Source: Ornithinibacter sp. (GTDB lineage Bacteria > Actinomycetota > Actinomycetes > Actinomycetales > Dermatophilaceae). Taken from it: a DNA stretch of 64,000 bases. A program made the position numbers and the translations under genes. The stretch lies in contig JAQSWG010000034.1 of the NCBI GenBank assembly GCA_029266735.1, forward strand, positions 9,694 through 73,693. Reading direction: 5' to 3'. Below the pieces are notes generated by a model that saw only the letters and a list, made by a program, of their open reading frames with translations, had not been told where the DNA came from and ran no database searches. This document shows, piece after piece, positions 3,957-63,366 of the stretch; positions within the stretch are counted from its first letter, which is position 1; each line of letters starts with the position of its first letter.

Positions 3957-6104
3957 GTGGAGATCTGGCCCGGAACGCCCTATCCCCTCGGGGCGACGTA
4001 CGACGGTAGTGGAGTGAACTTCGCGCTGTTCAGCGAGGTCGCCGAGGACGTTGAGCTGTGCCTCATCGACGACGACGGCGTCGAGACCCGCGTGGAGATG
4101 CCGGAGGTGGACGGGTTCGTGTGGCACGGCTTCATCCCGGGCGTGCAGCCCGGCCAGCGGTACGGGTACCGGGTCCACGGCCCCTACGAGCCCGAGCAGG
4201 GACACCGCTGCGACCCGAGCAAGCTGCTGCTGGACCCCTACGCCAAGGCGATCGAGGGGCAGGTGAGCAACGACCGGGCGCTCTTCTCCTACGACTTCAA
4301 GGACCCGAGCAGGCGCAACGCCGAGGACAGCCTGGGCAAGACCATGCTCTCGGTCGTCATCAACCCCTACTTCGACTGGGGGCACGACCGGCCACCGAAC
4401 CACGAGTACCACGACACCGTCATCTACGAGGCCCACGTCAAGGGTCTGACGATGACGCACCCGGAGGTGCCCGAGGAGATCCGTGGGACGTATGCCGCGA
4501 TCGCCCACCCCGCGATCATCGACCACCTCACGACCCTCGGCGTCACGGCGATCGAGCTCATGCCGGTGCACCAGTACGTCCAGGACACCTCGCTCCAGGC
4601 CAAGGGCCTCACGAACTACTGGGGCTACAACACCATCGGCTTCCTCGCGCCGCACAACGGCTACGCCCGGGGCCAGCGCGGCGAGCAGGTCCCCGAGTTC
4701 AAGGCGATGGTCAAGGCCCTGCACGACTCCAACATCGAGGTCATCCTCGACGTCGTCTACAACCACACGGCGGAGGGCAACGAGTTCGGACCCACGATCT
4801 GCTTCCGGGGGATCGACAACGCGGCCTACTACCGGCTCGTCGACGACGCGAAGGAGCACTACTACGACACGACCGGCACCGGGAACAGCCTCCTCATGCG
4901 GCACCCGCACGTGCTGCAGCTCATCATGGACTCCCTGCGGTACTGGGTCACCGAGATGCACGTCGACGGCTTCCGCTTCGACCTCGCCGCCACCCTGGCC
5001 CGCCAGTTCCACGAGGTCGACAAGCTCTCGGCCTTCTTCGACCTCATCCAGCAGGACCCGGTGATCTCCCAGGTCAAGCTCATCGCCGAGCCGTGGGACG
5101 TCGGCGACGGCGGCTACCAGGTCGGCAACTTCCCCCCGTTGTGGACCGAGTGGAACGGCAAGTACCGCGACACGGTGCGGGACTTCTGGCGTGGCGAGCC
5201 ACGCACTCTCGGCGAGTTCGCCTCACGGTTCACGGGCTCCAGCGACCTCTACGAGCACAGCGGTCGCAAGCCCATCGCCTCGATCAACTTCGTCACCGCC
5301 CACGACGGCTTCACGCTGCGAGACCTCGTGTCCTACAACGAGAAGCACAACGAGGCCAACGGCGAGGACGGCCGGGACGGCGAGAGCCACAACCGCTCGT
5401 GGAACTGTGGCGTGGAGGGCCCGTCCGACGATCCGGAGGTCCAGGCCCTGCGCCTGCGGCAGCAGCGCAACTTCCTCACGACGCTGCTCCTGAGCCAGGG
5501 CGTCCCGATGATCGCCCACGGTGACGAGATCGGCCGCACCCAGCAGGGCAACAACAACGTCTACTGCCAGGACAACGAGCTCTCCTGGGTGAACTGGCAG
5601 CTCGAGGACTCCCAGAAGGAGCTGTTCGCCTTCACGGCCGCCCTCACGACACTGCGGCGGGAGCACGCGGTCTTCCGTCGGCGGAGGTTCTTCGCCGGGA
5701 GCGCCCAGCACGGCGGCCAGTCCGAGATGGGCGACATCGCCTGGTTCCAGCCCTCGGGCGAGCCGATGTCCGAGTCGCACTGGTCGGTCGGCGAGGCGAC
5801 GGTGTCGGTGTTCCTCAACGGCCGCGCCATCCCCACCCCCGACAACCGGGGCCGACGGGTGGTCGACGACGACTTCCTCGTCCTCTTCAACGCCGACCAC
5901 GAAGAGAGAAGCTTCCGCCTCCCTGGGCAGGAGTGGGGCGAGCACTGGCTCGTCGAGGTCGACACCGGGGTGAGCGTCGTCGACCCCGGCTGGCACGAGC
6001 CCGGCAGCGAGCTGTCGGCCAAGCCGCGGTCCGTCATCCTCCTGCGCAGCCCCAGGGAGACCCCGACGGCGCCCTCCGGAGTGGCGACGACGAATCGGAC
6101 GTGA
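3957..6104 (+). CDS. glgX: Glycogen debranching enzyme GlgX/TreX
   Basis: WPGTPYPLGATYDG, YWGYNT, DVVYNH, DGFRFDLA, NFVTAHDGFTL; GTG start after GGAAGG. Confidence 0.95.
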   Translation: MEIWPGTPYPLGATYDGSGVNFALFSEVAEDVELCLIDDDGVETRVEMPEVDGFVWHGFIPGVQPGQRYGYRVHGPYEPEQGHRCDPSKLLLDPYAKAIEGQVSNDRALFSYDFKDPSRRNAEDSLGKTMLSVVINPYFDWGHDRPPNHEYHDTVIYEAHVKGLTMTHPEVPEEIRGTYAAIAHPAIIDHLTTLGVTAIELMPVHQYVQDTSLQAKGLTNYWGYNTIGFLAPHNGYARGQRGEQVPEFKAMVKALHDSNIEVILDVVYNHTAEGNEFGPTICFRGIDNAAYYRLVDDAKEHYYDTTGTGNSLLMRHPHVLQLIMDSLRYWVTEMHVDGFRFDLAATLARQFHEVDKLSAFFDLIQQDPVISQVKLIAEPWDVGDGGYQVGNFPPLWTEWNGKYRDTVRDFWRGEPRTLGEFASRFTGSSDLYEHSGRKPIASINFVTAHDGFTLRDLVSYNEKHNEANGEDGRDGESHNRSWNCGVEGPSDDPEVQALRLRQQRNFLTTLLLSQGVPMIAHGDEIGRTQQGNNNVYCQDNELSWVNWQLEDSQKELFAFTAALTTLRREHAVFRRRRFFAGSAQHGGQSEMGDIAWFQPSGEPMSESHWSVGEATVSVFLNGRAIPTPDNRGRRVVDDDFLVLFNADHEERSFRLPGQEWGEHWLVEVDTGVSVVDPGWHEPGSELSAKPRSVILLRSPRETPTAPSGVATTNRT

Positions 6105-6106
6105 GG

Positions 6107-8602
6107 ATGCCGTCCCCCCACCGCCCGGACCCGGGCCGCGTCGTGCCCGTCGCGACCTACCGACTCCAGATCCACGCGGGCTTCGGGTTCGACGCGGCGG
6201 CCGAGCACACGGCATACCTGGCCGCGCTCGGCGTCTCGCACCTCTACCTCTCACCCGTCCTCCAAGCTGTCCCGGGGTCGACGCACGGCTACGACGTTCT
6301 CGACCACACCCGGATCAACGAGGAGGCCGGAGGTCGCGAGGCGTTCGAGCGTCTCGTCACGGCGTGCCGGGAGGCCGGCCTCGGCATCATCCTCGACGTG
6401 GTCCCGAACCACATGGCGGTCCCGCGGCCGGCTCACCTCAACGCGCCGTTCTGGTCCCTCCTGCGCGACGGCGCACGCTCATCGTATGCGGGGTGGTTCG
6501 ACGTCGACTGGGTGGCCGAGGACGACCGCATCCTCATGCCGGTCCTGGGCGGCACGCTCGAGCAGGCCGTGGAGTCGGGGGAGCTGGTCGTCGCCGACGA
6601 CGGAGGACCGAGCGGGTCCGAGCACGTCCTGCGCTACTACGACGCCGAGTTCCCGGTGGCACCCGGCACCGAGGACCTCCCCCTTCCGGAGCTGCTCGGT
6701 GCACAGGCCTACCGCCTGTCCAGCTGGCGGGAGGCCGGTGAGGCCCTCAACTACCGGCGCTTCTTCGACGTCACGTCGCTCGTCGCGGTGCGGGTCGAGG
6801 ACCCCGTCGTCTTCATGGCGACGCACGCCCTCCTTCTCTCGCTGCACGGCCACGGCGAGGTGGACGGCTTCCGGATCGACCACCCCGACGGGCTCGCTGA
6901 CCCGCAGGGCTACCTCGACCGGCTCGCCGACGCGACCGGGGGGGCCTGGGTCGTCGTCGAGAAGATCCTCGAGGGCGAGGAGGCCCTGCCCGAGTCGTGG
7001 CGCTGCGCCGGGACGACGGGGTACGACGCGCTTCTCCGGGTGCAGCAGGTGCTCACCCCCACAGCGGGCCTCGAGGTGCTGGACCGGCTGTGGGCCGAGG
7101 CGGCGCCGGACCGTGCGAGTCTGGACGACGTCATCACCGACGCCAAGCGCCTCGTCGTCGACGACGTCCAGGCGGCCGAGGTGGACCGGCTCATGCGGCT
7201 CGTGCGGCGGGTGCTCGGGGACATCGACACCGCCGCGGTCCGCCGCGCCCTCGAGGCGCTCCTCGTGGCCATGGACCGCTACCGCGCCTACGTCCCCAGC
7301 CGCGGCGTCGACCCCGAGCAGCAGGCGGTCGTCGAGCAGGCGGCGGAGCGGGCGCAGCGGCTCCTCGCGCCCAGCGACCTCGACGCACTGGGCCTGGTCG
7401 TCGACCTGGTCCTCGGCCGAGACCTCCCCGAGGCACAGCTCGACACCCGCGCGGTGGCCGACGACTTCCGGCTGCGGTTTCAGCAGACCTGCGGACCGGT
7501 GATGGCCAAGGGCATCGAGGACACCGCCTACTACCGCTGGTTCCGGCTTGCCGGTGCCAACGAGGTGGGCGGACACCCCGACCACCCGTCGATCACCGTG
7601 GAGGAGTTCCACGCCTGGTGCGAGCGTCTCGTGAGCACCTGGCCGACCTCGATGACGACGCTGACGACCCACGACACCAAGCGGTCGGAGGACGTGCGCG
7701 CCCGGCTCATGCCGCTGGCCGAGGACGGCGAGGGGTGGGCGGCCTGGGTCGCGCAGGCCCGCACGATCGCTGCTCCCTACCGCGTGGAGGCGCTCGACGG
7801 TCCCACCGAGTACCTCCTCTGGCAGACGCTCATCGGCACCTGGCCCATCAGCGGTGCGCGTCTCGAGACGTACGTGCTCAAGGCGGTCCGCGAGGCCAAG
7901 GTGCACACCGCGTGGGTCGACGGGGACGCCCACTACGAGGACATGGTCGTCGCCTACGCCAGGGCGCTTGCCCGCGATGGTGCGGTGAAGAGGCACCTCG
8001 ACGCCTGGACCGCTGCGCACGAGCCGTCGGTCCGGGCGAACATCCTCGGCCAGAAGCTCCTCCAGCTGACGATGCCTGGCGTCCCCGACGTCTACCAGGG
8101 GTGCGAGATCGGGATGCTCTCGCTCGTGGACCCGGACAACCGGCGGCCTGTGGACTGGACCGACCGGGCCGAGCGCCTCCACCGCGTGCTCGCCGACGAG
8201 CCGGCGTTCGACCTCGACGACGAGAAGCTGCGCGTCACTGCACGGGCGCTCGCGGTGCGTCGTGAGCTCGCCGAGGTCTTCGTCGGTGAGACGACGACGT
8301 ATGCCGGGCTGCCCACCGGCAGCGAGCACGCCCTCGCCTTCACCCGAGGGGATGGCGACGGGCCGAAGGTCGTCACGGTGGTGACCCGGGCGGCCGGCCT
8401 GCTCGAGGCCGCCGGCGGCTTCGGTGACACCACCGTGGAGCTGCCACCCGGGGAGTGGAGCGATGTCCTGACGGCACGCCGGGTCACCACGGACGGGTCG
8501 GGTGTCCGCCTCGCGGGCCTCCTGGACGACGGTCCGGTGGCCCTTCTCGTCCGCAGGGACGCTGGGCCGGTGGATGGCGTCGGATCTCCCGTCGAAGGGT
8601 GA
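6107..8602 (+). CDS. treY: Malto-oligosyltrehalose synthase
   Basis: ATYRLQ, STHGYDV, DVVPNHM, NYRRFFDV, RIDHPDGL, THDTKRSED. Confidence 0.95.
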   Translation: MPSPHRPDPGRVVPVATYRLQIHAGFGFDAAAEHTAYLAALGVSHLYLSPVLQAVPGSTHGYDVLDHTRINEEAGGREAFERLVTACREAGLGIILDVVPNHMAVPRPAHLNAPFWSLLRDGARSSYAGWFDVDWVAEDDRILMPVLGGTLEQAVESGELVVADDGGPSGSEHVLRYYDAEFPVAPGTEDLPLPELLGAQAYRLSSWREAGEALNYRRFFDVTSLVAVRVEDPVVFMATHALLLSLHGHGEVDGFRIDHPDGLADPQGYLDRLADATGGAWVVVEKILEGEEALPESWRCAGTTGYDALLRVQQVLTPTAGLEVLDRLWAEAAPDRASLDDVITDAKRLVVDDVQAAEVDRLMRLVRRVLGDIDTAAVRRALEALLVAMDRYRAYVPSRGVDPEQQAVVEQAAERAQRLLAPSDLDALGLVVDLVLGRDLPEAQLDTRAVADDFRLRFQQTCGPVMAKGIEDTAYYRWFRLAGANEVGGHPDHPSITVEEFHAWCERLVSTWPTSMTTLTTHDTKRSEDVRARLMPLAEDGEGWAAWVAQARTIAAPYRVEALDGPTEYLLWQTLIGTWPISGARLETYVLKAVREAKVHTAWVDGDAHYEDMVVAYARALARDGAVKRHLDAWTAAHEPSVRANILGQKLLQLTMPGVPDVYQGCEIGMLSLVDPDNRRPVDWTDRAERLHRVLADEPAFDLDDEKLRVTARALAVRRELAEVFVGETTTYAGLPTGSEHALAFTRGDGDGPKVVTVVTRAAGLLEAAGGFGDTTVELPPGEWSDVLTARRVTTDGSGVRLAGLLDDGPVALLVRRDAGPVDGVGSPVEG

Positions 8603-8653: not shown

Positions 8654-10513
8654 GTGGAGGATCGACGCTGGCCAGCCGGCCAGGTGCCGATCGCGGTGTG
8701 GGCCCCCGCGGCCACCCGGGTGGAGCTGGAGTGGGCACCGGTCGGTGGCCCGGCCCGGCGCGACCCGATGACCGCGGTCGGGAAGGGCTGGTGGTGCTGG
8801 GAATCCCAGGGGGCCGCGTCCGCCGCGGGGACGGCATACCCGATCGACTACGCGTTCGTGCTCGACGGGGACGAGCCAGCGCTTCCTGACCCTCGCGGCG
8901 CGTGGTTGCCGTACGGCGTCCACGGTCCGAGCCGGACGTTCGACGCAGGCGCCTTTCCCTGGAGCGACGGCGCGTGGCTCGGACCCCGTTCGGGTGCAGG
9001 CGTCCTCGGTGGCGTGTTCTACGAGCTGCACGTCGGCACCTTCACCGCGGAGGGCACCCTGGATGCCGCGCTGGGTCGGCTGGACCACCTCGTCGACCTG
9101 GGCGTCGACGTCGTCGAGCTCATGCCGGTGGCCGAGTTTCCCGGCCGGTGGAACTGGGGCTATGACGGCGTGGCTCTCTACGCCGTGGACGACGGCTACG
9201 GCGGCCCGCGGGCGTTGCAGCGCTTCGTCGACGCCTGCCACACCCGAGGGCTGGGAGTGTGCCTGGACGTCGTGCACAACCACCTCGGTGCCAGTGGCAA
9301 CTACCTCTCGCGGTTCGGGCCGTACTTCACCTCGGCGCACGAGACCCCGTGGGGCCCGGCCGTGAACCTCGACAACGAGGGGTCCGAGCAGGTGCGGGCC
9401 TTCCTCCTCGAGAACGCCGTGCGCTGGTTCCGCGACTTCCACCTCGACGCCCTGCGCCTCGACGCCGTTCATGAGCTGAAGGACGACTCGGGACGGCACT
9501 ACCTCGCCGAGCTCTCCGACGTCGTCGCCGGCCTGGCCCACGAGGTCGGCCGCCCCCTCGACCTCGTGGCCGAGAGCGACCTCAACGACCCGGTCATGGT
9601 GACCCCGACGAGCGAGGGTGGCCGCGGCATGACGGCGCAGTGGGACGACGACATCCACCATGCGCTGCACGTGTCACTGACGGGCGAGCGGCACGGGTAC
9701 TACGCGGACTTCGCCGGCGGTGGTGGGCGGGACGAGACCGGCCCGCTCGACGTGCTCGCCAAGGTGCTGACCCGCGGCTTCCTCCACGACGGCACGATGT
9801 CGACGTTCCGTGGCCGTCCGTGGGGGCGGCCGGTGGACGTGGACCGCCTCGACGCACGTCGGCTGCTCGGCTACCTGCAGACGCACGACCAGGTCGGCAA
9901 CCGGATGGCGGGTGACCGGATCACCGCGTCCCTCGCTCCGGGCCTGCAGGCCGCAGGTGCTGCGCTCTACCTGCTGGCTCCCACGACGCCGATGATCTTC
10001 ATGGGCGAGGAGTGGGCCGCGTCGACGCCGTGGCAGTTCTTCACGAGCTTCGAGGAGGAGGTGCTCGCGGATGCCGTCCGGCGCGGCCGGCGGGCCGAGT
10101 TCGGCTCGCACGGCTGGTCGGAGGACGAGGTGCCGGACCCGCAGGACCCGGCGACACGAGACCGCTCGGTGCTCGACTGGTCCGAGGTGGAGGAGCCGGC
10201 CCGGGCGCGGGCCCTCCGGTGGTACACCGCGTGCACGCGCCTGCGCCGCGACCTCCTCGCACCGGCGCCGACGCGCTTTGCCGATGTGTCCGTCGACGTC
10301 GACGAGGACGCTCGCTGGGTGGTGCTGGTCCACGCACCCGCCGACCGACCGGCATACGCCGTGGTGGCGAACCTCGCCGAGCGCGAGCAGGCGCTGCCCC
10401 TGGCCGCGGGTCCCGCTGAGCTGCTTCTCGCGTGGGAGGAGGACGGCACGGTCGCCGGCGACGGGGTCGTCATCCTGCCGCCGCACGCGGTGGCCGTCCT
10501 CCGCCTCCGCTGA
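8654..10513 (+). CDS. treZ: Malto-oligosyltrehalose trehalohydrolase
   Basis: YELHVGTFT, WGYDGV, LRLDAVH, THDQVGNR, FMGEEW. Confidence 0.95.
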   Translation: MEDRRWPAGQVPIAVWAPAATRVELEWAPVGGPARRDPMTAVGKGWWCWESQGAASAAGTAYPIDYAFVLDGDEPALPDPRGAWLPYGVHGPSRTFDAGAFPWSDGAWLGPRSGAGVLGGVFYELHVGTFTAEGTLDAALGRLDHLVDLGVDVVELMPVAEFPGRWNWGYDGVALYAVDDGYGGPRALQRFVDACHTRGLGVCLDVVHNHLGASGNYLSRFGPYFTSAHETPWGPAVNLDNEGSEQVRAFLLENAVRWFRDFHLDALRLDAVHELKDDSGRHYLAELSDVVAGLAHEVGRPLDLVAESDLNDPVMVTPTSEGGRGMTAQWDDDIHHALHVSLTGERHGYYADFAGGGGRDETGPLDVLAKVLTRGFLHDGTMSTFRGRPWGRPVDVDRLDARRLLGYLQTHDQVGNRMAGDRITASLAPGLQAAGAALYLLAPTTPMIFMGEEWAASTPWQFFTSFEEEVLADAVRRGRRAEFGSHGWSEDEVPDPQDPATRDRSVLDWSEVEEPARARALRWYTACTRLRRDLLAPAPTRFADVSVDVDEDARWVVLVHAPADRPAYAVVANLAEREQALPLAAGPAELLLAWEEDGTVAGDGVVILPPHAVAVLRLR

Positions 10514-11556: not shown

Positions 11557-13038
11557 TCAGGCCACGAGCGGACGGCGCGTCCTGTCGCCCGTCCCGGGGG
11601 ACGGCGGCGGCCTCCGTGTGCCGGCGCGGCGCGACCCCGGGAGGCGGGTCGCCTCGACCGCCCGGGCGAACCGCTCGACGGCCTCGGTCATCACCTCGGG
11701 TGCGAGGACGTAGGGGAGCCGCACCCACCGCTCCAGCCCCCCGACCACGGCGAAGCGGGGCCCGGCCGCGACGAGGAGCTTCTCGTCCTCGGCGGCGACC
11801 GTGACGCCGGTGGCGTCGACGCCGTCGGGCAGCTCGCACCAGAGGGACAACCCGCCGCGTGGCACCTGGAAGCGGACGTCCGGAAGGCGCGCCCGGAGGG
11901 CCGTCACGAGCGCGTCGCGCGACGCGCGCAGGTCCTCGCGCCGCTCCGCGGTCAACCCGGGGGCGAGCCGCATCAGCTCGAGGAGGACGAGCTGCTCGAG
12001 CACGGGCGCGCCGAGGTCGGTCGTGACCCGAGCCTCGACGAGCGCGGGGAGGGCCGACCGGGGGGCGCGCACCCACCCGGTGCGCAGGCCACCCCAGTGC
12101 GACTTCGAGGAACTGCCCACGCTGATCGTCCGCGGGTCATGGACGCCGAACGGCAGCGGACGTGGACCCTCACCGAGGTCGATCTCGGCGATGGTCTCGT
12201 CGACGATCGGCAGCGTCCTCGCCGTCCGCAGTGCACGGGCGAGCTGGGCGCGCTGCTCGTCGCCCATGAGTGCGCCCGTGGGGTTGTGGAAGTCGGGGAT
12301 GAGGACCGCCGCCGTGGCCCCCGCCGCGCGCACCGTGCGCGCCGACTCGGGCACGTCCCACCCGTCGGGATCCATCCCGAGGGTCACGAGACGTGCCCCG
12401 CTCCGCCGGAGGGCGTCCACCGTGTTGGGGTACGTCGGGTTCTCGACGACGACCCGGTCGCCGTGGGCGAGCAGTGCTCGCAGGACGATGCCGATGCCCG
12501 CGACGGCTCCGGAGGTCACGAGGACCTCGTCCGGGCCCGTCGGCAGCCCCCGTGCGGTGTAGCGGTCGGCGATGACCTCTCGGAGCTCCGGCACGCCGAG
12601 GGTGAGGTAGCCGGCCCCCGCGAGGTGCGCCGGCAGCTGCCCCACCGCCCGCTCGTACGCCTCGACGACGCCGGCGGGGGCGCGGGTGGCGGCGCAGGTC
12701 AGGTCGATGACGTCCTCGGAGGCGTCGGCCGGGAAGAGCGAGCCCGTGCCGCGCCGCCGGCTCCCCGATGGGAGGGTCGCGACGGAGCCGGACCCCCGAC
12801 GCGAGGTGAGGTACCCGCTGTCCCGCAGCACGGCATACGCCCTCGTCACCGTGGTGCGGCTGACGTCGAGGGCCGCCGTGAGCTCGCGTTCGCTCGGCAG
12901 CCGGGCACCGACGGCGATGCGGCCGTCGGCGACGGCGACCCGGAGGGCGTCGGCCAGGGCGCGGTATGCCGGGCGGCCGGGCGAGAGCTCGCCGACGAGC
13001 CGGGCGGTGCGGGCGGCCGAGACGGGAGGCGTCGACAT
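11557..13038 (-). CDS. MocR/GntR family PLP-dependent regulator (YczR-like)
   Basis: N-terminal GntR HTH (LPSERELTAALDVSRTTV), aminotransferase-like domain (PDFHNPTG, SSSKSHWGGLRTGW); divergent from a YczE-like gene. Confidence 0.9.
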   Translation of the reverse strand: MSTPPVSAARTARLVGELSPGRPAYRALADALRVAVADGRIAVGARLPSERELTAALDVSRTTVTRAYAVLRDSGYLTSRRGSGSVATLPSGSRRRGTGSLFPADASEDVIDLTCAATRAPAGVVEAYERAVGQLPAHLAGAGYLTLGVPELREVIADRYTARGLPTGPDEVLVTSGAVAGIGIVLRALLAHGDRVVVENPTYPNTVDALRRSGARLVTLGMDPDGWDVPESARTVRAAGATAAVLIPDFHNPTGALMGDEQRAQLARALRTARTLPIVDETIAEIDLGEGPRPLPFGVHDPRTISVGSSSKSHWGGLRTGWVRAPRSALPALVEARVTTDLGAPVLEQLVLLELMRLAPGLTAERREDLRASRDALVTALRARLPDVRFQVPRGGLSLWCELPDGVDATGVTVAAEDEKLLVAAGPRFAVVGGLERWVRLPYVLAPEVMTEAVERFARAVEATRLPGSRRAGTRRPPPSPGTGDRTRRPLVA

Positions 13039-13856: not shown

Positions 13857-16007
13857 TCAGCCGTCGACGGCGAGCGCGAACGGCAGGACGTCCGGCGCGC
13901 CGGCGCGGCGAAGGGCCCGGCCCGCGACCGTGAGGGTCCATCGAGACGACACGAGGTCGTCGACGAGGAGCACCGGCCCCCGGAGCTCGTCGAGGGCCGT
14001 CGCGAGGCCGGGACCGACGACGAGCCGCTCCCACACGCCGGCGAGACGGAACGCACTGTTGCCACCCGGCTCACCGGCTGGTCCGCCGTGTGCGAGGTCG
14101 AGGGCACCCAGGAGGGGGAGCCGGCCCACCTCGGCGAGACCGGCAGCGAGCGACCCGACCAGCACGGGCCGGGAGCGAGAGGGGACGAAGGCGACGGCAA
14201 CCGGCCGCCGGGCCCAACCCCATTCCGCGAGGACGGGCACACACGCACCGATCAGCTCGGGTGAGGCGGGCAGGTCGTCGCGAAGCAGCTCGCGCAGCCG
14301 GTGACCCCACCCCAGGTCCGAGAGCCGCGCGAGGGCCCGGCCGGTCAACAGAGCCTCCTCCGCTCCGATCCGCCCCTTCACCGGCACGCCGAGACGGTCC
14401 ATCCCCGTCGGCCACTGGACCCGCGGCTCGAGGTCGACGCCTGCCCGGGCGAGACGCTCGCGTGCCGCACCGACGACCCTGTCGGGCACCTGGGTCGAGT
14501 ACCACGGCCCGGCGCACCCGTCGCACCGCCCGCAGGCGGCGGCGGAGTCGTCGTCGAGGCACTCCTGGAGGAACGCCATCCGACAGGCATCGGTCCGCTC
14601 GTAGCCCAGCATGAGGTCCTGCTCGGCCGCTCTGGCCTGCGCGACGCGCTCGTAGCGCTCGGCGTCGTAGGTCCACGGCTGTCCCGTGGCGACCCAGCCG
14701 CCTGACACGCGCCGTACGGCGCCGTCGACGTCGAGCACCTTGAGGAGCAGCTCCAGCCGGGTGCGGCGCACGTCGACGGCCGTCTCCAGGGCAGCCGTCG
14801 ACAGGGGCCGGCCGGCCTCGGCGAGGGCACGGAGCACGGCATCCGCCTGCTCCTCCCGAGGCATGGACACCGAGGCGAAGTACGTCCAGATGTCCCGGTC
14901 CTCGGGACCGGGGAGGAGGAGCACGTCCGCCCGCTCGGTCGCGCGCCCCGCGCGGCCGACCTGCTGGTAGTACGCCACCGGTGAGCTGGGGGCGCCGAGG
15001 TGCACGACGAAGCCGAGGTCGGGCTTGTCGAAGCCCATCCCGAGCGCCGACGTCGCGACCAGCGCCTTGACCTCGTTGCGGCGCAGCGCCCCCTCCAGGC
15101 GCTCTCGGTCCGCGGGGTCCGTGCGGCCGGTGTACGACGCCACGGCGAGTCCGGCCTCGGAGAGCGCGGCGGCGACGTCCTCCGCGGCCGACACCGTCAG
15201 CGTGTAGACGATGCCGCTGCCCGGGAGCTCCGGGAGGTGCGCCACGAGCCAGCCGAGGCGCTGTTCCGGGGACATCGAGCGGAGGACACCGAGGCGCAGG
15301 GAGTCGCGCGCGAGCCCGCCCCGCACCGTGAGCACCGAACGGCCGCCGACGCCGAGCTGCTCGACGACGTCGGTGACGACGCGCGCGTTGGCCGTGGCCG
15401 TCGTCGCGAGCACCGGGGTGTCCTCCGGGAGGCCCGCGAGCAGGTCGCGGATGCGGCGGTAGTCCGGGCGGAAGTCGTGGCCCCAGTCGCTCACGCAGTG
15501 CGCCTCGTCGACGACGAGCAGCCCGCAGCGGCGCGCCAGGTCGGGCAGCTGCTCGTCCCGGAAGCGGGGGTTGTTGAGCCGCTCGGGGCTCACGAGGAGC
15601 ACGTCGACCGCGTCGGCGACGAGCGCGGCGCGCACCTCGTCCCAGTCCTGGGCGTTGGCCGAGTTCATGGTCACCGCCCGGATGCCGGCCCGCTCTGCGG
15701 CCGCGATCTGGTCGCGCATGAGCGCGAGCAGCGGACTGAGGATCACGGTCGGGCCCGCGCCCTGGGCACGGCGCAGCGCCGTCGCGACGAAGTAGACCGC
15801 GGACTTGCCCCACCCGGTGCGCTGGACGACGAGGACCCGGGAACGGTCGGCGACGAGGGCCGACACCGCCTCCAGCTGGCCCTCCCGGAAGTCGGCATCC
15901 TCCCGACCGACCAGCGCGCGCAGGGCCCTGCGCGCGTCGTCCGTGAGGTCGGCACTCGGCAGGGACGAGGCAGGCGGCAGGGTCACGGCATCCGTCGGGT
16001 TCGTCAT
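13857..16007 (-). CDS. RecQ-like ATP-dependent DNA helicase with C-terminal PRTase-like domain (RqlH type)
   Basis: QRTGWGKS, DEAHCVSDWGHDFRPDY, ATSALGMGFDKPD, QQVGRAGR, Cys cluster CRM...CGRCDGC, C-terminal LLVDDLV. Confidence 0.9.
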   Translation of the reverse strand: MTNPTDAVTLPPASSLPSADLTDDARRALRALVGREDADFREGQLEAVSALVADRSRVLVVQRTGWGKSAVYFVATALRRAQGAGPTVILSPLLALMRDQIAAAERAGIRAVTMNSANAQDWDEVRAALVADAVDVLLVSPERLNNPRFRDEQLPDLARRCGLLVVDEAHCVSDWGHDFRPDYRRIRDLLAGLPEDTPVLATTATANARVVTDVVEQLGVGGRSVLTVRGGLARDSLRLGVLRSMSPEQRLGWLVAHLPELPGSGIVYTLTVSAAEDVAAALSEAGLAVASYTGRTDPADRERLEGALRRNEVKALVATSALGMGFDKPDLGFVVHLGAPSSPVAYYQQVGRAGRATERADVLLLPGPEDRDIWTYFASVSMPREEQADAVLRALAEAGRPLSTAALETAVDVRRTRLELLLKVLDVDGAVRRVSGGWVATGQPWTYDAERYERVAQARAAEQDLMLGYERTDACRMAFLQECLDDDSAAACGRCDGCAGPWYSTQVPDRVVGAARERLARAGVDLEPRVQWPTGMDRLGVPVKGRIGAEEALLTGRALARLSDLGWGHRLRELLRDDLPASPELIGACVPVLAEWGWARRPVAVAFVPSRSRPVLVGSLAAGLAEVGRLPLLGALDLAHGGPAGEPGGNSAFRLAGVWERLVVGPGLATALDELRGPVLLVDDLVSSRWTLTVAGRALRRAGAPDVLPFALAVDG

Positions 16008-16242
16008 GGTTCGTCCACCGTATGCCGCGCCGCCGACGTCACCGTCGCACCGTCCACAGGGCGGGGTGAGCCGTCGAGCGCTGCTCCACCGACCCCCGGG
16101 CTCCGGTATCACTTCGCGGTCGGGTGGGTGCTTCGCGGACGTCGTGCGGGTTTCCGGACCCTCGGAACAGGGCACTGCGTGGACATCCGCTCGACCTGGC
16201 GGGCCGTGCCCGGGCCCGCACCGACCCACGGAGAGGACCGCC

Positions 16243-16621: not shown

Positions 16622-17977
16622 TCAGGTCCATCCGCCCGGGTCGATGCCCCCCGGCAGGTCCGCGTCCGGGTCGTACGGCGTCCGCGTGAGCCGGAACGAG
16701 GCGACGTCCAGGTGCGAGACCGTCCCGTTGCCGCGGCGGACGACGCGCATCGGCTCACCGGCGAAGTAGCTGTCCAGCCCGACCCACTCGTCGGCGGCCA
16801 CCCGCCGGAACCGTGAGCCGCGGGCCGCTCCCGGCTCCCCGAGCACAAGGTGCTCGCCGTCGACGCGTGCGGTCTGGGTCGCCGCGCCCCAGTGCCACGT
16901 CCCGACGAGCTCGAGGAGCGACGGGTCACCGCCGGCGGTCCACGTCTCCGGCATCCGTGGCTCCCGCTCCGCGAGCCCACGGAGCAGATCGCGGGTGAGG
17001 TCCCCGGTCACCGGGCTCGCCGTCGTGTTGGTGAGCACGACGACGCCGTCCCCGCCCTCGAGGCGGACCGCGAGGAGGGCGAGGAAGCCCGGCATGGACC
17101 CCCCGTGCCCGGCGTACCGCACGCCCGCCTCGTTCCATACCGAGAAGCCGAGGCCGTGAGCGGCCACCCAGGGTTTTCCCGGCTCGTCCACGACGTGGTG
17201 CGGCTCGAGCATCTCGGCGAGGGTGTCGGCCGACAGCAACCCGGCCGTGTCACCGGCGAGGAACCTCGCCCACCGGGCGAGGTCGTCGAGGGTCGTCCAC
17301 AGCTGCCCCGCTGGGGCCATCGCCCCGGCATCGTGCTCCGGCTCACGCAGGAGGACGTCGGCGAAGGGGTGCACCGCGAGGCCGGGCGCCGCGTCACCGG
17401 TGGGGCGAAGCGTCGTCCGCCGCATCCCCAGCGGCTCCAACAGGTCCTTCTGGACCACGTCGAACCACCCACGGCCGTGGTGCACCTCGAGGAGGCGACC
17501 CAGGCCGGCATACCCGACGTTGGAGTAGTGGAACCGCCGACCGGCGCGGAACCGCGCTCCGACGGGCTGGGCGACGAGCGCCTCCCAGTCGCCGCCGGCG
17601 GTGCGCTCCCACCACGGGCCGGACGTCTCGGCCTGCACCCCGCCGGAGTGGGTGAGGAGCTGCTCGACAGTCGCCACCCCGAGCGGCGTGCCGGGCACGA
17701 GGTCCTCGAAGCGGTCGCTGAGGTCGAGCCGCCCCGCGTCACGCAGCCGGAGCACGGCGACGGCGACGAACGTCTTCGTGATGGACCCCATCCGGTACTG
17801 CGTGTCGGCGTCCGGGGGCGGGCCCCCGGCACGGCCGTCGACGGTCCCGGCGGCACCGCTCCAGACCAGTTGCCCATCGCGGACGAGACCGGCGACGACG
17901 GACGGCAGCCGCGCGTCGTGCTGGGCAGTGGCGAGGACGTGGTCGAGGTGCGCGGACGTCGTGGGCTGCAGCGGCAT
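16622..17977 (-). CDS. Serine hydrolase (beta-lactamase/AmpC family)
   Basis: SxxK (GSITKTF), YSN, LLTHSGG, GHGG. Confidence 0.9.
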   Translation of the reverse strand: MPLQPTTSAHLDHVLATAQHDARLPSVVAGLVRDGQLVWSGAAGTVDGRAGGPPPDADTQYRMGSITKTFVAVAVLRLRDAGRLDLSDRFEDLVPGTPLGVATVEQLLTHSGGVQAETSGPWWERTAGGDWEALVAQPVGARFRAGRRFHYSNVGYAGLGRLLEVHHGRGWFDVVQKDLLEPLGMRRTTLRPTGDAAPGLAVHPFADVLLREPEHDAGAMAPAGQLWTTLDDLARWARFLAGDTAGLLSADTLAEMLEPHHVVDEPGKPWVAAHGLGFSVWNEAGVRYAGHGGSMPGFLALLAVRLEGGDGVVVLTNTTASPVTGDLTRDLLRGLAEREPRMPETWTAGGDPSLLELVGTWHWGAATQTARVDGEHLVLGEPGAARGSRFRRVAADEWVGLDSYFAGEPMRVVRRGNGTVSHLDVASFRLTRTPYDPDADLPGGIDPGGWT

Positions 17978-18511: not shown

Positions 18512-19185
18512 CGGACGTGCTGCGGTTTCACGACGTCGCGTCCTTGTCCGACCTGGGCCGGTATGCCGTGCGCGCGCGCTCCGTGGACGGTGAGGGTGCG
18601 ATGCGGCTGCAGGCCGCCGGTGACGTGCTCGCCGCATGGGTCGGCGTGCTCCCCGGGTCGGGAATCCTCGCCGAGGGAACGGTGCTCGGCCTGCGCACCT
18701 TCGCCCTCGCCGAGGACGCCGAGATCGACGTCCTCGTCCCGCTCGGTGCAGTGGTCGACCGGACCGCCCACGCGACATCGACGGCCGACCTCCACGTGCC
18801 CCCGACGCGGGCACTTGCACCCTGGTCCGCCCTCACGCCGCCCCGGGGGCCGTGGGAGCCGGTCGGTGTGCTGCCCGGTGACCTGCTGGCAAGTGTGGCG
18901 CGAGACGGGGTCGCCGAGGTCGCCGCCGCGGTGCGCGAGCGGGGCGCCGCAGCCGGCTTCGCCCGGGACCGGGTGTGGTCACGCGACGTCCGCGAGGCCG
19001 CAGGCCCGCACCCGGACCTGCTGACGGCGGACGGCATCCCGACCGACGGCATCCCGGTTCGCACGGGAGGGGCGTTCGCGGCCTACGCCCTCGGCTTCCT
19101 GGCCCCCGGCAGCACCGTGCAGGTCCTGCGCTGCAACCGGTGGACGAGGTTGAGCGCCCCCGGCGGGCACGTCGTCCTGCGGTGA
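18508..19185 (+). CDS. Conserved actinobacterial hypothetical protein
   Basis: GTGA overlap with the thioesterase stop; GC3-biased frame; ends GGHVVLR; occupies the usual slot next to the thioesterase in this conserved block. Confidence 0.75.
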   Translation: MTDVLRFHDVASLSDLGRYAVRARSVDGEGAMRLQAAGDVLAAWVGVLPGSGILAEGTVLGLRTFALAEDAEIDVLVPLGAVVDRTAHATSTADLHVPPTRALAPWSALTPPRGPWEPVGVLPGDLLASVARDGVAEVAAAVRERGAAAGFARDRVWSRDVREAAGPHPDLLTADGIPTDGIPVRTGGAFAAYALGFLAPGSTVQVLRCNRWTRLSAPGGHVVLR

Positions 19186-21824: not shown

Positions 21825-22054
21825 GTTTCCGTATGCCGTGCCCAGCCACGAAGTACGGTGCGCTCCGATGCCGTCATGATCCGGCTGCCGGCGTCGGGCG
21901 GCTGCACGTCGGGTCGAAGGGCCGGGCGACGAGGACGATCTCCGTCCCCGTGAGCGTCCGCGCCGACCGGCTCAGAAGGACGTCACCGCGCACGCCGCCA
22001 GGAGAGGCGTACGACACCTGGACGCAGATCGGGGACTCCGGGAAGACGACGTCC

Positions 22055-22462
22055 TCACTCAGCGGGGACCTGTGCAGGCGGCGGGGGTGGCCCGTGGCCG
22101 GTGTTGACCATCATGTGTGCTGCCCGCTGGAAGTAGTCGCGCATGAGCTCGGCCTTGTCCTCGGGCAGGTCGAGGCTCTCCATCGCGGCCAGCATGTGCC
22201 GTAGCCAACGGTCACGCATGTCGGCGGTCACCGGATAGGGGACGTGCCGCATGCGCAGCCGCGGGTGACCGCGCTCCCGGCTGTATGCCGGCGGTCCGCC
22301 GAAGTACTGCTCCAGGAACATGCGCAGGCGACGTTCGGCGGGCTCGAGGTCCTCGTCGGGATACAGGGCCCGCAGCTCGGGGTCGCTCGCGACTCCCTGG
22401 TAGAACGCGTGGACGAGCCGCTCGAACGTCGGCGCCCCACCGACCTCCTCGTAGATGCTCAC
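22055..22462 (-). CDS. glbO: Group II truncated haemoglobin
   Basis: YEEVGGAPTF, FLEQYFGGP, RGHPRLRMRH, RDRWLRHM. Confidence 0.9.
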   Translation of the reverse strand: MSIYEEVGGAPTFERLVHAFYQGVASDPELRALYPDEDLEPAERRLRMFLEQYFGGPPAYSRERGHPRLRMRHVPYPVTADMRDRWLRHMLAAMESLDLPEDKAELMRDYFQRAAHMMVNTGHGPPPPPAQVPAE

Positions 22463-48914: not shown

Positions 48915-50647
48915 GCGGGCACCCCCTCGAGGGCGGCTCGCACGTCTGCGACCGTGAGCCAGGGGCCGGGGCCCGTCACCTTGGACACCTGCGGGGCGAA
49001 CGCCGGGGAGGACGTGACGACCTCGGCGGTCGGGCCGTCGGCGACCACCTCACCCGCCGCCAGCACGACCACGCGGTCGGAGCACTCCGCGACGAACTCG
49101 ACGTCGTGCGTCGACACGACGATCGACCGACCGCGCGCCGCGAGGTCGCGCAGGAGGCGGCTCAGCGCGGCCTTGGCCGTCGGGTCGAGGCCCCGAGTCG
49201 GCTCGTCGAGCAGCAGCACCGGCGGGTCCGCGGTCAGCTGGACCGCGAGGACGAGGGCGAGCTGCTGTCCCTCGGACAGGTCGCGTGGGTGATGGTCCGC
49301 GAGGACTCCGGGGGCGATCTCGACGAGCAGGTCGGCGCACGTGCCCGACAGCCTCCCGCTCTCACGGTCCGCCTGGTGACACTCCGCGCCGACGGTGTCG
49401 AGGTACAGCAGATCCGCCGCGGACTGCGGCACCAGCCCCACGAGCGCCCGTCGCTCAGCGGCCCCGAGGACGCGGGGGTCCACGCTGTCGGATGCCGTGC
49501 CCCCGGTTCCACCCGAGGCGGCCGTCTCGGGTGTCGGGGCCCGCGTGGCCGGGGGCACGACCCGGACCGTCCCGCTGCTCATCGTTCCGCTTCCCTGGAG
49601 TGCCCAGAGGAGAGAGGACTTCCCGGACCCGTTGCGCCCCATGACGGCGGTGACCTCCCCGGGGAACAGGTCGAGGTCGACGCCCGCGACGGCGACGACG
49701 TCCCCGGGGTGACGGACGACGACACCCCGAGCAGACAGCACGCCCCCCTGTCGGGCGACGTGGCCGCGACGGCGGCGCTCTCCGGAGGCCGACCGGTCCG
49801 CGGGCGACGACCTCTCGAGCGTCCCGAGGAGGTCAGCCCGCAGGTCGCGAGCCGCCCGGCGCGCGTCGCGCACCGACAGCGGCAGCGGCGCCCACCCGGC
49901 ATACCGGCCCAGCTCGACGACAGGAGAGGTGATGTCACTCTCGACCATGAGGCCCGCCGGCGTCCCGGAGCTGACCGAGCCGTCCCGGGAGACGTGGACG
50001 ACCCGGTCGGCGTAGTGGAGCACCCGTTCGACGCGGTGCTCCGCGACGACGACGGTGACGGCGAGGTCGTGGACGAGCCGGGTGATGGTCGCGAGCACCT
50101 CCTCAGCGCCGGTCGGGTCGAGGGCGGAGGTCGGCTCGTCGAGCAGGAGCACCCGCGGGTGCGCGGTCAGCACCGACCCGATGGCGACACGCTGCTGTTG
50201 CCCACCCGACAGGTCGCGCAGCGGCGCGTCGCGCAGCTCGGCGATGCCGAGGAGGTCGAGGGTCTCCTCGACCCGTTTTCGCATCGTCGTGCCGGGTAGC
50301 CCCAGCTGCTCCATGCCGTAGGCGAGCTCCTCCTCGACCGTGTCGGTGACGAACCCCGCCACGGGATCCTGCCCCACGACACCGACGACGTCGGCGAGGT
50401 CGCGCGGACGGTGGTCGCGGGTGTCGCGTCCATGGAGGAGCACGTGTCCGGTGAGGACGCCCCCGGTGAAGTGCGGCACCCGCGCGCACATCGCACCGAG
50501 CAGGGTCGACTTGCCGGACCCCGTGCGTCCGACGACGAGAGCGAGCTCGCCCTCCTCCACGGTGAGGTCGACCTCACGCAGCACCGGTCCGTCGGCCCCC
50601 GGAAGGGTGACCGACACTCGCTCGAGGGAGATCGCGTGGTCAGCCAC
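48911..50647 (-). CDS. ECF transporter tandem ATPase
   Basis: GRTGSGKST / LSGGQQQR / LLDEPT and GRNGSGKS / LSEGQ / LLDEPT. Confidence 0.92.
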   Translation of the reverse strand: MADHAISLERVSVTLPGADGPVLREVDLTVEEGELALVVGRTGSGKSTLLGAMCARVPHFTGGVLTGHVLLHGRDTRDHRPRDLADVVGVVGQDPVAGFVTDTVEEELAYGMEQLGLPGTTMRKRVEETLDLLGIAELRDAPLRDLSGGQQQRVAIGSVLTAHPRVLLLDEPTSALDPTGAEEVLATITRLVHDLAVTVVVAEHRVERVLHYADRVVHVSRDGSVSSGTPAGLMVESDITSPVVELGRYAGWAPLPLSVRDARRAARDLRADLLGTLERSSPADRSASGERRRRGHVARQGGVLSARGVVVRHPGDVVAVAGVDLDLFPGEVTAVMGRNGSGKSSLLWALQGSGTMSSGTVRVVPPATRAPTPETAASGGTGGTASDSVDPRVLGAAERRALVGLVPQSAADLLYLDTVGAECHQADRESGRLSGTCADLLVEIAPGVLADHHPRDLSEGQQLALVLAVQLTADPPVLLLDEPTRGLDPTAKAALSRLLRDLAARGRSIVVSTHDVEFVAECSDRVVVLAAGEVVADGPTAEVVTSSPAFAPQVSKVTGPGPWLTVADVRAALEGVPA

Positions 50648-51779
50648 GCACGACCACCCGGTCCCGGGCGCCTCGGTGCGCGACTCGCGCCGCCGGCCGC
50701 AGCGGTGCGGGGGTGAGGTATGCCGGCAGCGCGCCGACGAGCAGCCCGACGACGGGTGCGAGGGGGAGGGGCGGCACGGCCAGCGGGGTGAGGGGCATCA
50801 CGAGCAGCTCGGGCGTCATGCGAGACACGGTCACCAGCGTGGCGGCGGCGAAGACCCCGCAACCGACGGTCAGCCACTCCGCGCCACGCCAGGGGTCGGG
50901 CCGGTACGTCGTCCGCGGCACGTGCCGCCCGCCGAGCCAGAGGCCCAGGCCGGAGAGGGCCAGGCCCGCGAGGAGGGTCGGGGTGCCCATCATGGCCGGC
51001 GTCGTCGCGTCGAGCACGCCGTAGATGCCGACGGCACTGGCGAGGAGACCCCCGAGGGTCACCGCACCCGTGACGAGCCGGTGCCCCCGGGGCACGTGCT
51101 CGGTCCGGCCGTACCCACGGGAGTCCATCGCCGCGGCGAGGAGCAGGGACCGCTCGAGAGTGTCCTCGAGGACGGGAAGAGCGACGGTGGGGACGGCGCG
51201 GAGCCCACGCGTCGTGTCACCGCGAAGCTGTCGTGCCCGGAGGACCCGCTGCACGCTCTCCGCGAGCTGGGGCGCGACCGACACCGACACCACCACGGCC
51301 GAGCCGATCTCGTGGAGGGCGCCGGGAAGGGCGCGCAACAGCCGTTTCGGGTTCGCGAGCGCGTTGGCGGCACCGATGCAGGCGATCATGACCGCGAGGC
51401 GCAGACCGGCGAGGGCGGCGGCCAGCAGACCTTCCAGGTAGACCGTCCCGCCGACCTGGATGCCGGCCGCCCACGACGGGAGAGTCACCTCGGGGAGCCG
51501 GAGGACCACGATCTCCCCGAACTTCAGGCCCACGAGCACGTGCAGCACGACTCGCACGACGACGATGGCGAGGCCGAGCCAGAGGTACAACCGGAACGCC
51601 CTCGCCCACGGCGACGTCCCGCGGCGGGCGGCGACGACCAGGGCCACCACGCACAGGGCCAGGAGGAGCAGGACGGGGTTCGTCGTCGTGCTGGCCGCGA
51701 CCGCCATGCCGATGGCCCACCCCCACCACGCCGCGGGGTGCACGGCGCGCGGGAGGCTGGACGTCATCGGACCGGTCAT
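50640..51779 (-). CDS. ECF transporter T component (CbiQ/EcfT family)
   Basis: HPAAWWGW, NPKRLLR, RARQLRG, AAAMDSRGYG. Confidence 0.88.
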   Translation of the reverse strand: MTGPMTSSLPRAVHPAAWWGWAIGMAVAASTTTNPVLLLLALCVVALVVAARRGTSPWARAFRLYLWLGLAIVVVRVVLHVLVGLKFGEIVVLRLPEVTLPSWAAGIQVGGTVYLEGLLAAALAGLRLAVMIACIGAANALANPKRLLRALPGALHEIGSAVVVSVSVAPQLAESVQRVLRARQLRGDTTRGLRAVPTVALPVLEDTLERSLLLAAAMDSRGYGRTEHVPRGHRLVTGAVTLGGLLASAVGIYGVLDATTPAMMGTPTLLAGLALSGLGLWLGGRHVPRTTYRPDPWRGAEWLTVGCGVFAAATLVTVSRMTPELLVMPLTPLAVPPLPLAPVVGLLVGALPAYLTPAPLRPAARVAHRGARDRVVVRG

Positions 51780-54480: not shown

Positions 54481-54716
54481 CAGGCGTTCGAGCCGTCATC
54501 AGCGGCGAGCCTCCGGAAGAACGGGACCACTGCTCAGGCTGTGGTCCTCACTAGAACCGGACGTCGGGGTCACGTCACGACCTGGTGCAAGAGCGGCCGC
54601 CTCGGCGGCAAGCGAGGTGGTACCGCGGTGGTGCGCGGCCGGCATACGGGATGCCGTTCACGTGCCGTCGTCCTCGTCCCGGCAGTGACGAGTCGACGAC
54701 CCGCAGGAGCAGCACG
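54481..54716 (+). ncRNA. Actinobacterial ileS translational T-box riboswitch
   Basis: -10 TAGACT at 54468-54473; short stem I with Ile specifier ATC at 54498-54500; T-box AAGCGAGGTGGTACCGCG at 54610-54627; no U-tract terminator. Confidence 0.9.
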
Positions 54717-62649: not shown

Positions 62650-63276
62650 TCAGTCGTCGAGGTCCTCCCCGGCCAGGGCCCTGGCAGCGAGGCGTTCCTC
62701 CCCGGCGAGCGTCCAGACCTGCCGGGCCGCCCCCACGTTGACGATCACGATGACGCTGCCCAGGACGATGTCGGGCCAGCCCGAGCCGGTCCAGGAGGTG
62801 ACGAGCGCCATGACGATGATCGCCAGGTTCACGGCGACGTCGGCTCGGGCCGAGAGGTAGGCCGCGCCGGTGAGCGAGCCACCGTGGTGCCGGACCCGCA
62901 CGAGGAGGACGGCGCACACGGCGTTGACCGCGGCGGCCCCACCAGCGGTGACGAGCAGTGCCGGGACATCGGGTGCCGTGGGGTCGAAGGCCTTGCTCAC
63001 CGCCTGCCACGCGGCGACCAGCGCCGGGACGAGGATGATGATCGCCATCGCGTGCCCGGCGACGGCACGGCGCGCCAGCGGCCAACCGAGCGCCAGTGCG
63101 ATGAGGAGGTTGATCGCCGTGTCCTCGAGGAAGTCGACCGAGTCGGCGAGGAGTGACACCGAGCCGATGGCGACGGCCACGACCATCTCGATCCCGGCAT
63201 ACCCGAGGTTCAGCCCCGCGACGAGGAGCACGGTGCGCCGCAGGAGTCGGGGGTCGAGCACGGAGGACGACGTCAC
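62650..63276 (-). CDS. Cation diffusion facilitator family transporter lacking the cytoplasmic C-terminal domain
   Basis: SVSLLADSVDFLED, SARAD, WPDIVLG; about 208 aa. Confidence 0.8.
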   Translation of the reverse strand: MTSSSVLDPRLLRRTVLLVAGLNLGYAGIEMVVAVAIGSVSLLADSVDFLEDTAINLLIALALGWPLARRAVAGHAMAIIILVPALVAAWQAVSKAFDPTAPDVPALLVTAGGAAAVNAVCAVLLVRVRHHGGSLTGAAYLSARADVAVNLAIIVMALVTSWTGSGWPDIVLGSVIVIVNVGAARQVWTLAGEERLAARALAGEDLDD

Positions 63277-63366
63277 GTCCACATCACACCAGAGCGCCTG
63301 ACCAGGCAGCCCGCCGCTCGACCCGCACCGATCGGCGACCAGCCGCCCGCGGCATACCCTTGCTGG

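Follow-up and report, generated by a model that had tools for sequence, protein, structure and literature searches.

A strand-symmetric octamer hyper-abundant in Ornithinibacter and in part of its family: a possible self-DNA tag in Actinobacteria

Genome-saturating tags that mark a bacterium's own DNA are known from very few lineages, the Neisseriaceae, the Pasteurellaceae and the cyanobacteria, and they are informative on how bacteria distinguish their own DNA from foreign DNA. Pasteurellaceae carry uptake signal sequences (USS) with the 9-bp core AAGTGCGGT, and Neisseriaceae carry DNA uptake sequences (DUS), namely GCCGTCTGAA and its dialects. Chi sites, such as GCTGGTGG for E. coli RecBCD and AGCGG for B. 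subtilis AddAB, are co-oriented with replication and only modestly enriched. The cyanobacterial word HIP1 (GCGATCGC) is kept by selection or drive; its function has been debated for decades, and recent work has connected it with the efficiency of transformation and put it forward as a signal for uptake (PMC5861425, PMC13756078, bioRxiv 10.1101/2024.09.10.611283), while two orphan methyltransferases have been found to recognise it (PMC4390886). Here we analyze what may be a new case in Actinobacteria, the octamer GTATGCCG (inverted, CGGCATAC) and its sister word GGATGCCG (inverted, CGGCATCC), collectively GKATGCCG, in a 64,000-nucleotide stretch of Ornithinibacter sp. This stretch, called the window below, comprises positions 9,694 to 73,693 of contig JAQSWG010000034.1 (C45:9694-73693 of the assembly labelled G000).

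A preliminary description of the window had listed 26 positions of the octamer and claimed a near-even split between strands. On recount every position was exact, with 14 copies on the plus strand and 12 on the minus strand, and dinucleotide-preserving shuffles of the window gave 0.79 +/- 0.94 copies with a maximum of 4. The sister word GGATGCCG, which had also been said to recur, occurs 40 times in the window where 5.25 copies are expected. The whole assembly, a metagenome-style one of 3.16 Mb in 161 contigs with 71.6% GC and about 94% completeness, contains 1218 copies of GTATGCCG, 609 per strand, against a zero-order expectation of 106. Its density is one copy per 2.6 kb, and the richest relative has one per 0.66 kb. 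The 24 single-substitution neighbors of GTATGCCG are present in G000 in 3 to 372 copies each, with the exception of GGATGCCG, which reaches 2202. About one third of all TAT/ATA triplets in this genome (1218 of 3784) lie inside GTATGCCG, and under a maximal-order Markov model ATGCC is the top over-represented 5-mer and ATGCCG the top 6-mer. The hyper-abundance of GTATGCCG is real, as first reported.

Codon usage does not account for these numbers. With heuristic gene calls made for this analysis (2886 coding sequences, 88% of the genome), the sense phase NNG|TAT|GCC|G was found to hold 569 copies, the antisense phase nCG|GCA|TAC 381 and the other four phases 60, so that the two main reading phases hold 950 of the 1218 copies; another 185 are intergenic, and the word is denser between genes (0.53 per kb) than within them (0.37 per kb). 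The 1011 coding copies compare with 105 +/- 10 in within-gene synonymous shuffles and with 201 +/- 11 in synonymous shuffles that also keep the codon-junction dinucleotides. The genic word thus stands at 5 to 10 times the shuffled level, and this null is conservative because the rare codons inflated by the motif itself are re-used in it. The preliminary description had made its observation depend on the failure of a codon-pair-aware model, as just seen, and on unequal codon usage between contexts. The latter is pronounced: TAT accounts for 74% (569 of 771) of the tyrosine codons in G|TAY|GCC|G, against 8% genome-wide and 8 to 18% in control contexts, and GCA for 59% of the alanine codons in nCG|GCN|TAC against 2 to 3% in controls.

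The bias involves the whole word and not a single position. In the antisense phase GCA displaces GCC, which requires a transversion, as much as it displaces GCG. When the tyrosine codons (TAC and TAT summed) were sorted by the base at motif position 1 and by the following codon, there were 771 with G and GCC, 359 with C and GCC, 82 with G and GCG and 122 with C and GCG; G at position 1 and C at position 7 are co-enriched with an odds ratio of 3.2, compared with 1.05 in the control where the next base is C. Since the marginals of these other positions are shifted, the process responsible cannot be one that changes the fourth base alone. Less frequent phases agree. The GTA|TGC|CG phase shows 18% against 0.4% in its control, ATA reaches 2.8% in its phase against 0.5 to 0.8%, the codon before ATG|CCG is GGG in 72% of cases against 35% and GGT in 10% against 3%, CGG is found in 8 of 8 cases in its phase, and CCG in 19 of 22 against 24 of 46. 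All the silent positions of the motif, 1, 2, 3, 6, 7 and 8, are thereby shifted toward the word. The force acts on a complete asymmetric word of 8 to 10 bp, on both strands, and it overrides codon preference.

The flanks extend the word by one base on either side. With an A directly 5' or 3' of the word the occupancy of eligible sites is 17 to 35%, whereas with other flanking bases it is 75 to 84% in the sense phase and 50 to 74% in the antisense phase; because A is disfavored on either flank, the preferred site can be written B-GKATGCCG-B, a rule obeyed by all 26 window copies. The second base is K (G or T) in G000, since aspartate codons are affected (GAT 54%) and histidine and asparagine codons are not. 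This degeneracy, part of the preliminary description, holds in the present genus, where GGATGCCG is both pulled and cross-excluded by GTATGCCG, but not in the two other rich genera sampled, as GGATGCCG is not enriched in the motif-rich relatives G078 and G122. Within 500 bp of a same-orientation GTATGCCG, GGATGCCG occurs at 0.6 to 0.7 of expectation, and there is no depletion near an opposite one; at least some copies of GGATGCCG are functionally equivalent to GTATGCCG in this genus.

Among the synonymously reachable GTATGCCG sites of G000, 949 of 2205 (43%) are filled. Sense-phase sites (45%) and antisense-phase sites (40%) are filled to a similar degree, and the force is thus unrelated to the transcription strand. 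Occupancy at this level corresponds to a pull of about e^4.3 in G000; in the richest of the sampled relatives it is about e^7. Occupancy falls to 27% in genes of atypical composition, with third-position GC below 0.86, and to 36% in the quintile of genes best adapted to codon usage, compared with 45 to 47%, which suggests that the pull competes with translational selection.

The distribution of the copies along the two strands revealed a second property. No strand skew was detected on the 18 contigs longer than 45 kb (heterogeneity chi-square p = 0.64), including contigs with strongly biased gene orientation, and no polarity of the replichore, Chi or KOPS (FtsK-orienting polar sequence) type was seen in 400 kb of G078, where 73 plus and 82 minus copies were counted. 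Guides of the FtsK and SpoIIIE translocases (KOPS and the SpoIIIE recognition sequences, SRS), which are strongly polarized toward dif, do not agree with this lack of skew. Yet neighboring copies are not independent of orientation. Adjacent copies in G000 change orientation in 59.4% of pairs, against 51.3 +/- 1.4% under random placement, and only 48 same-orientation pairs lie within 500 bp where 115 are expected, whereas opposite-orientation pairs are at or above expectation. Likewise, eligible sites with a same-orientation copy within 500 bp show an occupancy of 26 to 29%, and those with an opposite-orientation copy 100 to 500 bp away 52 to 53%. The 400 kb sampled from G122 contain 607 copies, and 66.5% of neighboring pairs there alternate in orientation (p = 3e-16); same-orientation pairs of G122 occur at 0.17 to 0.57 of expectation up to 500 bp, at 0.8 up to 1 kb and at 1.0 beyond, and its opposite-orientation pairs exceed expectation (2.2 times) at distances under 100 bp only. 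The pairs within 500 bp in G078 are 5 in the same and 22 in opposite orientation. Same-strand avoidance within about 0.5 to 1 kb is therefore seen in three genera, and an orientation-dependent interference between copies is shown.

Spacing between neighbors arranged plus then minus did not differ from that of neighbors arranged minus then plus (p = 0.44 and 0.95), so the two strands carry independent series, each of them self-avoiding. Avoidance limited to the same strand is most simply explained if the unit that is read is one DNA strand, and this orientation dependence suggests that the word is read strand by strand. Taken overall, the spacing of copies comes close to a Poisson process beyond 2 kb (coefficient of variation 1.03), and 36 inverted pairs within 100 bp were found in G000, some of them forming long intergenic hairpins. 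The longest copy-free stretches, 12 to 22 kb, contain core genes such as uvrA, uvrC, gap and glyS, and this content rules them out as foreign islands.

The closest neighbors of the ClpX protein place the lineage in the Micrococcales, near Knoellia and Ornithinimicrobium. In all 18 congeners examined the word exceeded its reversed control 7- to 15-fold. A broader survey of 121 Dermatophilaceae-like genomes from 73 genera, divided into rich and poor by a density cut-off, revealed a bimodal distribution: about 39 genera have 133 to 1506 copies per Mb and about 33 have 2 to 85 per Mb, with one low-GC genus classed as rich by density though it is only 2.3-fold enriched. Strand counts were statistically equal in all the rich genomes of the survey, the largest deviation being 1.8 standard deviations. 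Outside the family, about 283 genomes from 23 other families of the order gave none above roughly 4-fold, so of the order's 24 families one alone shows hyper-abundance. Within the family, the genera nearest by isoleucyl-tRNA synthetase (84% and 80 to 81% identical) are motif-poor, while rich genera are found at greater distance, a sign that the trait is labile in evolution. No substitute hyper-abundant 8-mer, or dialect, was found in 340- to 400-kb samples of the poor genera G070, G086 and G093.

Four-fold degenerate sites are saturated within the genus (51 to 56% identity). The comparison of orthologous sites that the preliminary description had proposed was carried out with 3 to 11 comparable G000 sites per genome, and at this saturation inheritance and re-creation of a copy are not separable. 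What it did yield is that poor relatives carry ordinary codons at G000 motif sites (for example GTACGCCG, CTACGCCG and CTACGCGG). Since synonymous sites are saturated and yet every congener is enriched, the force must be current, and the word has vanished where the force is absent.

The word is also carried by a phage. Most matches in a scan of viral contigs for inverted motif pairs were due to chance, but one was a genuine phage record with the word. This IMG/VR record (G149; 27,290 bases, about 70% GC) encodes tape-measure, major-tail, neck and head-protease proteins, is siphovirus-like, and has 5 + 5 copies of GTATGCCG and none of the reversed control. Its density is host-like and some of its copies lie inside structural genes. 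It is a single incomplete record, and the phage may be temperate.

We looked for candidate machinery by profiling six gene families over the 121 family genomes, with presence or absence scored by six-frame hidden Markov model searches. Three of them are methyltransferases. The C5 methyltransferase family (PF00145), found in 52 genomes and absent from the congeners G007 and G009, showed no association with richness (odds ratio 1.03), and neither did N6_Mtase (PF02384; 74 genomes, absent from G000 and G009; odds ratio 0.66) or N6_N4_Mtase (PF01555; 40 genomes, absent from G000, G007 and G009; odds ratio 0.72). Nine rich genomes at least 95% complete had no match to any of the three, and PF02384 and PF01555 are taken here to cover most adenine methylases. 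ComEC (PF03772; 118 genomes, G000 among them) and the T2SSE/TadA-type ATPases (PF00437; 120 genomes) are near-universal and uninformative; pilus ATPases are present in G000. RecC (PF04257) was found in 36 genomes, 23 of the 54 motif-poor and 13 of the 67 motif-rich ones, a negative association (odds ratio 0.32, p = 0.009), and the present genus lacks it. This pattern may hint that RecBCD and the motif system are alternatives to one another, or it may reflect phylogeny only. None of the six profiled families singles out a reader of the word, and explanations based on methylation or on a RecBCD Chi are disfavored or excluded.

The preliminary description had offered two explanations, a selected or driven iterated recognition site (uptake-, HIP1- or Chi-like) and the decay footprint of a cytosine methyltransferase. 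The first fits all the evidence. Among its forms we tentatively favor an uptake- or recombination-type self-DNA tag linked to transformation and kept by molecular drive, a reading that is quite possible though far from settled, the link to transformation being inferred. Under this proposal GKATGCCG (not-A, G, G/T, A, T, G, C, C, G, not-A) would be a lineage-specific self-DNA tag and a DNA-exchange signal analogous to DUS and USS. It would be recognized during natural transformation, either on the single strand imported by ComEC or while that strand is being made; alleles carrying the word would enter and recombine more often, and molecular drive would accumulate the word until there is about one copy per imported-fragment length on each strand. 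Judging from the strand-specific self-avoidance, the DNA that is read would be single-stranded DNA taken in during transformation, or else resected tails. Transformation is known in an actinobacterium, Micrococcus luteus, where it proceeds via Flp/Tad pili plus ComEA/ComEC (PMC4322843). A bolder form of the proposal, somewhat doubtful in our judgment, is that the word would be the first sequence-specific DNA-exchange signal in a monoderm phylum, read, unlike DUS and USS, on single-stranded DNA (the ComEC-imported strand or a resected 3' tail), with per-strand self-avoiding tags about 1 kb apart that molecular drive maintains and a reader repeatedly gained or lost among Dermatophilaceae genera.

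Several observations weigh against the transformation-linked tag. Motif-poor genera have ComEC and the pilus ATPases just as often, so none of the competence genes tested tracks the motif, and our literature search found no report of natural transformation in the family. Uptake by H. influenzae is independent of USS orientation (PMC1939737). Strand-specific interference is not a described property of DUS or USS, and a literature search found no report of same-strand self-avoidance for uptake sequences; such interference would be just as compatible with a Chi-like reader of single-stranded DNA. The closest sister genera do not use a dialect but lack a substitute word altogether, and the host-like density of the phage record is not predicted by a pure uptake drive unless that phage is temperate. 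Apart from these points, literature searches turned up no description of the word or of an uptake specificity in this family, in line with the earlier statement that no such motif was known for the lineage.

The nearest competitor, which we consider unlikely, is a Chi-like role in which the word is read as single-stranded DNA by a translocating helicase-nuclease, of AdnAB type or other, during end resection, and switches it from degradation to recombination while marking self. In its favor, the two ends of a double-strand break would require both orientations, same-strand copies interfere while opposite-strand copies are independent, and a phage with host-like density is what DNA needing to survive a host nuclease should look like. 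An adjacent AdnAB-like helicase-nuclease gene pair is present at C8:58010-62115 in G000, and the negative association of RecC with richness hints at an alternative system. However, with RecC absent from the genome and the genus the word cannot be a RecBCD Chi, and we know of no Chi for AdnAB. Known Chi sites are skewed, whereas the word shows no co-orientation with replication or gene direction (p = 0.64), and a pull of about e^4 to e^7 per site looks far above what would be expected at known Chi sites.

Distinctly less probable is a HIP1-like role, with the word as a binding or modification site for a resident nucleoid-associated protein, or for an orphan methyltransferase and its partner, with a task in chromosome structure, in repair or in the discrimination of strands. 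Such a role would account for an octamer hyper-abundant against codon usage in genes and spacers alike, and a signal with an asymmetric site would have to occur in both orientations about every kilobase, in agreement with the per-strand self-avoidance. The word is non-palindromic, however, and none of PF00145, PF02384 and PF01555 tracks it: G000 has neither of the last two, and the nine rich genomes mentioned above have none of the three. The near-Poisson spacing beyond 2 kb also speaks against this role, copy-free stretches of 12 to 22 kb with core genes are odd for a structural element, and for HIP1 itself a link to transformation is now being drawn (PMC13756078).

A function-less process, in which an enzyme of biased repair or gene conversion always resolves near-cognate heteroduplexes toward the word, is very improbable. 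It would explain a strong force on all resident DNA, prophages included, without any fitness benefit per site, and the lability of the trait agrees with it. Yet no repair enzyme known to us acts on mismatches all along an 8- to 10-bp word; Vsr-type repair corrects one position. A C5 methyltransferase partner is not consistently present, and lowered occupancy caused by a same-strand copy 100 to 1000 bp away would have no explanation.

The two weakest explanations can be dealt with briefly. The decay footprint, that is C-to-T change at GKA[C]GCCG by a 5-methylcytosine methyltransferase, is refuted for practical purposes: motif position 4 is T where C is the preferred codon ending, and GTACGCCG is the commonest neighbor after GGATGCCG, but GTACGCCG is at its expected level and not depleted, the pull on positions 1, 2, 3, 6, 7 and 8 is impossible for a single-site mutation, the antisense phase replaces both GCC and GCG by GCA, and the C5 methyltransferase is unrelated to richness and missing from two congeners. 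An artefact of codon or dipeptide bias, of a dispersed repeat element or of Illumina adapter contamination is rejected with near certainty, in spite of the fact that most copies are hosted by Tyr-Ala and Ala-Tyr dipeptides and that the Illumina P7 adapter includes CGGCATAC, for the counts exceed synonymous shuffles, intergenic copies are denser than coding ones, the flanks are unconserved apart from the avoidance of A and a 3-base codon periodicity, the same word is enriched across dozens of independent assemblies, contig ends are not enriched for copies, and no extended adapter match exists in the genome, so it is not contamination. As a separate observation, the P7 adapter contains the word within ...TCGTATGCCGTCTTCTGCTTG, and GTATGCCGTC occurs 148 times in the G000 genome; adapter trimmers with a short minimum overlap could clip genuine reads of motif-rich genomes.

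The copies of GTATGCCG in the window illustrate the phases described above. In sense phase, plus-strand copies are located at 4490..4497 in a glgX-like gene (NNG|TAT|GCC|G), 8299..8306 (TAT|GCC), 18561..18568, 28866..28873, 45955..45962 and 46822..46829, and minus-strand copies at 12831..12838 (in a minus-strand gene), 17506..17513, 24349..24356 (in an M1 aminopeptidase gene), 40427..40434, 49897..49904 and 63195..63202. In antisense phase, minus-strand copies are found at 6210..6217 in a treY-like gene (nCG|GCA|TAC), 8832..8839 in a treZ-like gene (GCA|TAC), 10350..10357 (GCA|TAC) and 26606..26613, and plus-strand copies at 12964..12971, which is the opposite-orientation partner of the 12831 copy at a distance of 133 bp, at 22283..22290, 23834..23841 (in the M1 aminopeptidase gene) and 50718..50725. 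Intergenic copies lie at 21831..21838 on the plus strand and 63350..63357 on the minus strand. Two more, at 31421..31428 (plus, phase uncertain) and 31909..31916 (minus), fall within one weakly supported gene call (31148-32221) with a very low coding score (34 for 357 aa), where both octamers are in unusual phases; the real gene there probably uses a different frame or the opposite strand.

Inverted pairs in the window mix or repeat the two variants. The pair CGGCATCC ... GTATGCCG at 15986..16027 combines the G and T variants, with its second arm between gene calls, and a tight pair, CGGCATAC-g-GGATGCCG, at 54640..54656 in the intergenic region upstream of ileS also mixes T and G variants. Three pairs are formed by GGATGCCG and its inverted form. 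A hairpin, GGATGCCG ... CGGCATCC, is placed between two convergent genes at 3057..3092 (-33.9 kcal/mol for 3045-3105); GGATGCCG ... CGGCATCC at 36059..36112 sits at the foot of a perfect 18-bp stem, between one gene call that ends at 36034 and the next, which starts at 36155; and CGGCATCC ... GGATGCCG at 20597..20631 is located in an alpha-amylase-family gene call (20019-21824; -39.9 kcal/mol for 20585-20645).

Other repeated words were encountered along the way. The maximal-order Markov model revealed a second over-represented family in G000, AGCGNCT/AGNCGCT, with AGCGGCT at 1101 copies against 612 expected, AGGCGCT at 1236 against 751, AGTCGCT at 382 against 174 and AGCGTCT at 397 against 186; CTAGGCT was found 57 times against 10 expected. 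In G078 (G078:C1:1-400000) a set of strongly one-stranded overlapping 8-mers, among them GGAAGCAC, GAAGCACT, AAGCACTC, AGCACTCC and GCACTCCC, with AAGCACTC for instance at 62 copies on one strand and 2 on the other, points to a longer element, possibly a dispersed repeat or a CRISPR array, that is repeated about 60 times in these 400 kb and is unrelated to the octamer.

The patchiness of the octamer and its strand dependence are both of use. Avoidance between copies of the same strand restricts the candidate mechanisms to those that deal with single strands, and with rich and poor sister genera side by side the reader protein should be findable by phylogenetic profiling. Placing the word in donor DNA may make these poorly tractable bacteria transformable, and it could serve as a marker for binning and for the detection of foreign DNA.

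Compared with the known systems, the word shares with Chi its character as an over-represented asymmetric oligomer (5 to 8 bases in the case of Chi), and Chi is a self-DNA marker read on a single strand by a translocating enzyme; it differs from Chi in its lack of polarity, in its far stronger enrichment and in the absence of RecC from G000. Like HIP1, which is enriched 15- to 300-fold (PMC5861425), it is an octamer enriched against codon usage. HIP1 is palindromic and phylum-wide, however, whereas the word is asymmetric, patchy within one family and tracked by none of the tested methyltransferase families. The differences from DUS and USS are that the word resides in a monoderm high-GC actinobacterium, that it is shorter, with 8 bp plus two A-avoiding flanks, that it is spaced at one copy per 2.6 kb in G000 and per 0.66 kb in the richest relative, that its interference depends on orientation while USS uptake is reported to be orientation-independent, and that the tested sister genera of its host lack any such word instead of having a dialect. 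In H. influenzae, two USS within 100 bp gave no detectable gain in uptake (PMC7811141), the same kind of diminishing return as seen here. The likeness to DUS and USS extends further: these words, too, are short and non-palindromic, number a thousand or more per genome, are equally frequent on the two strands and unbiased around the chromosome, and lie mostly within genes in permissive frames, with a minority (roughly 10%) in inverted-repeat hairpins; they are confined to one family, a nearby second copy adds little (PMC1939737, PMC7811141), and molecular drive is their proposed origin.

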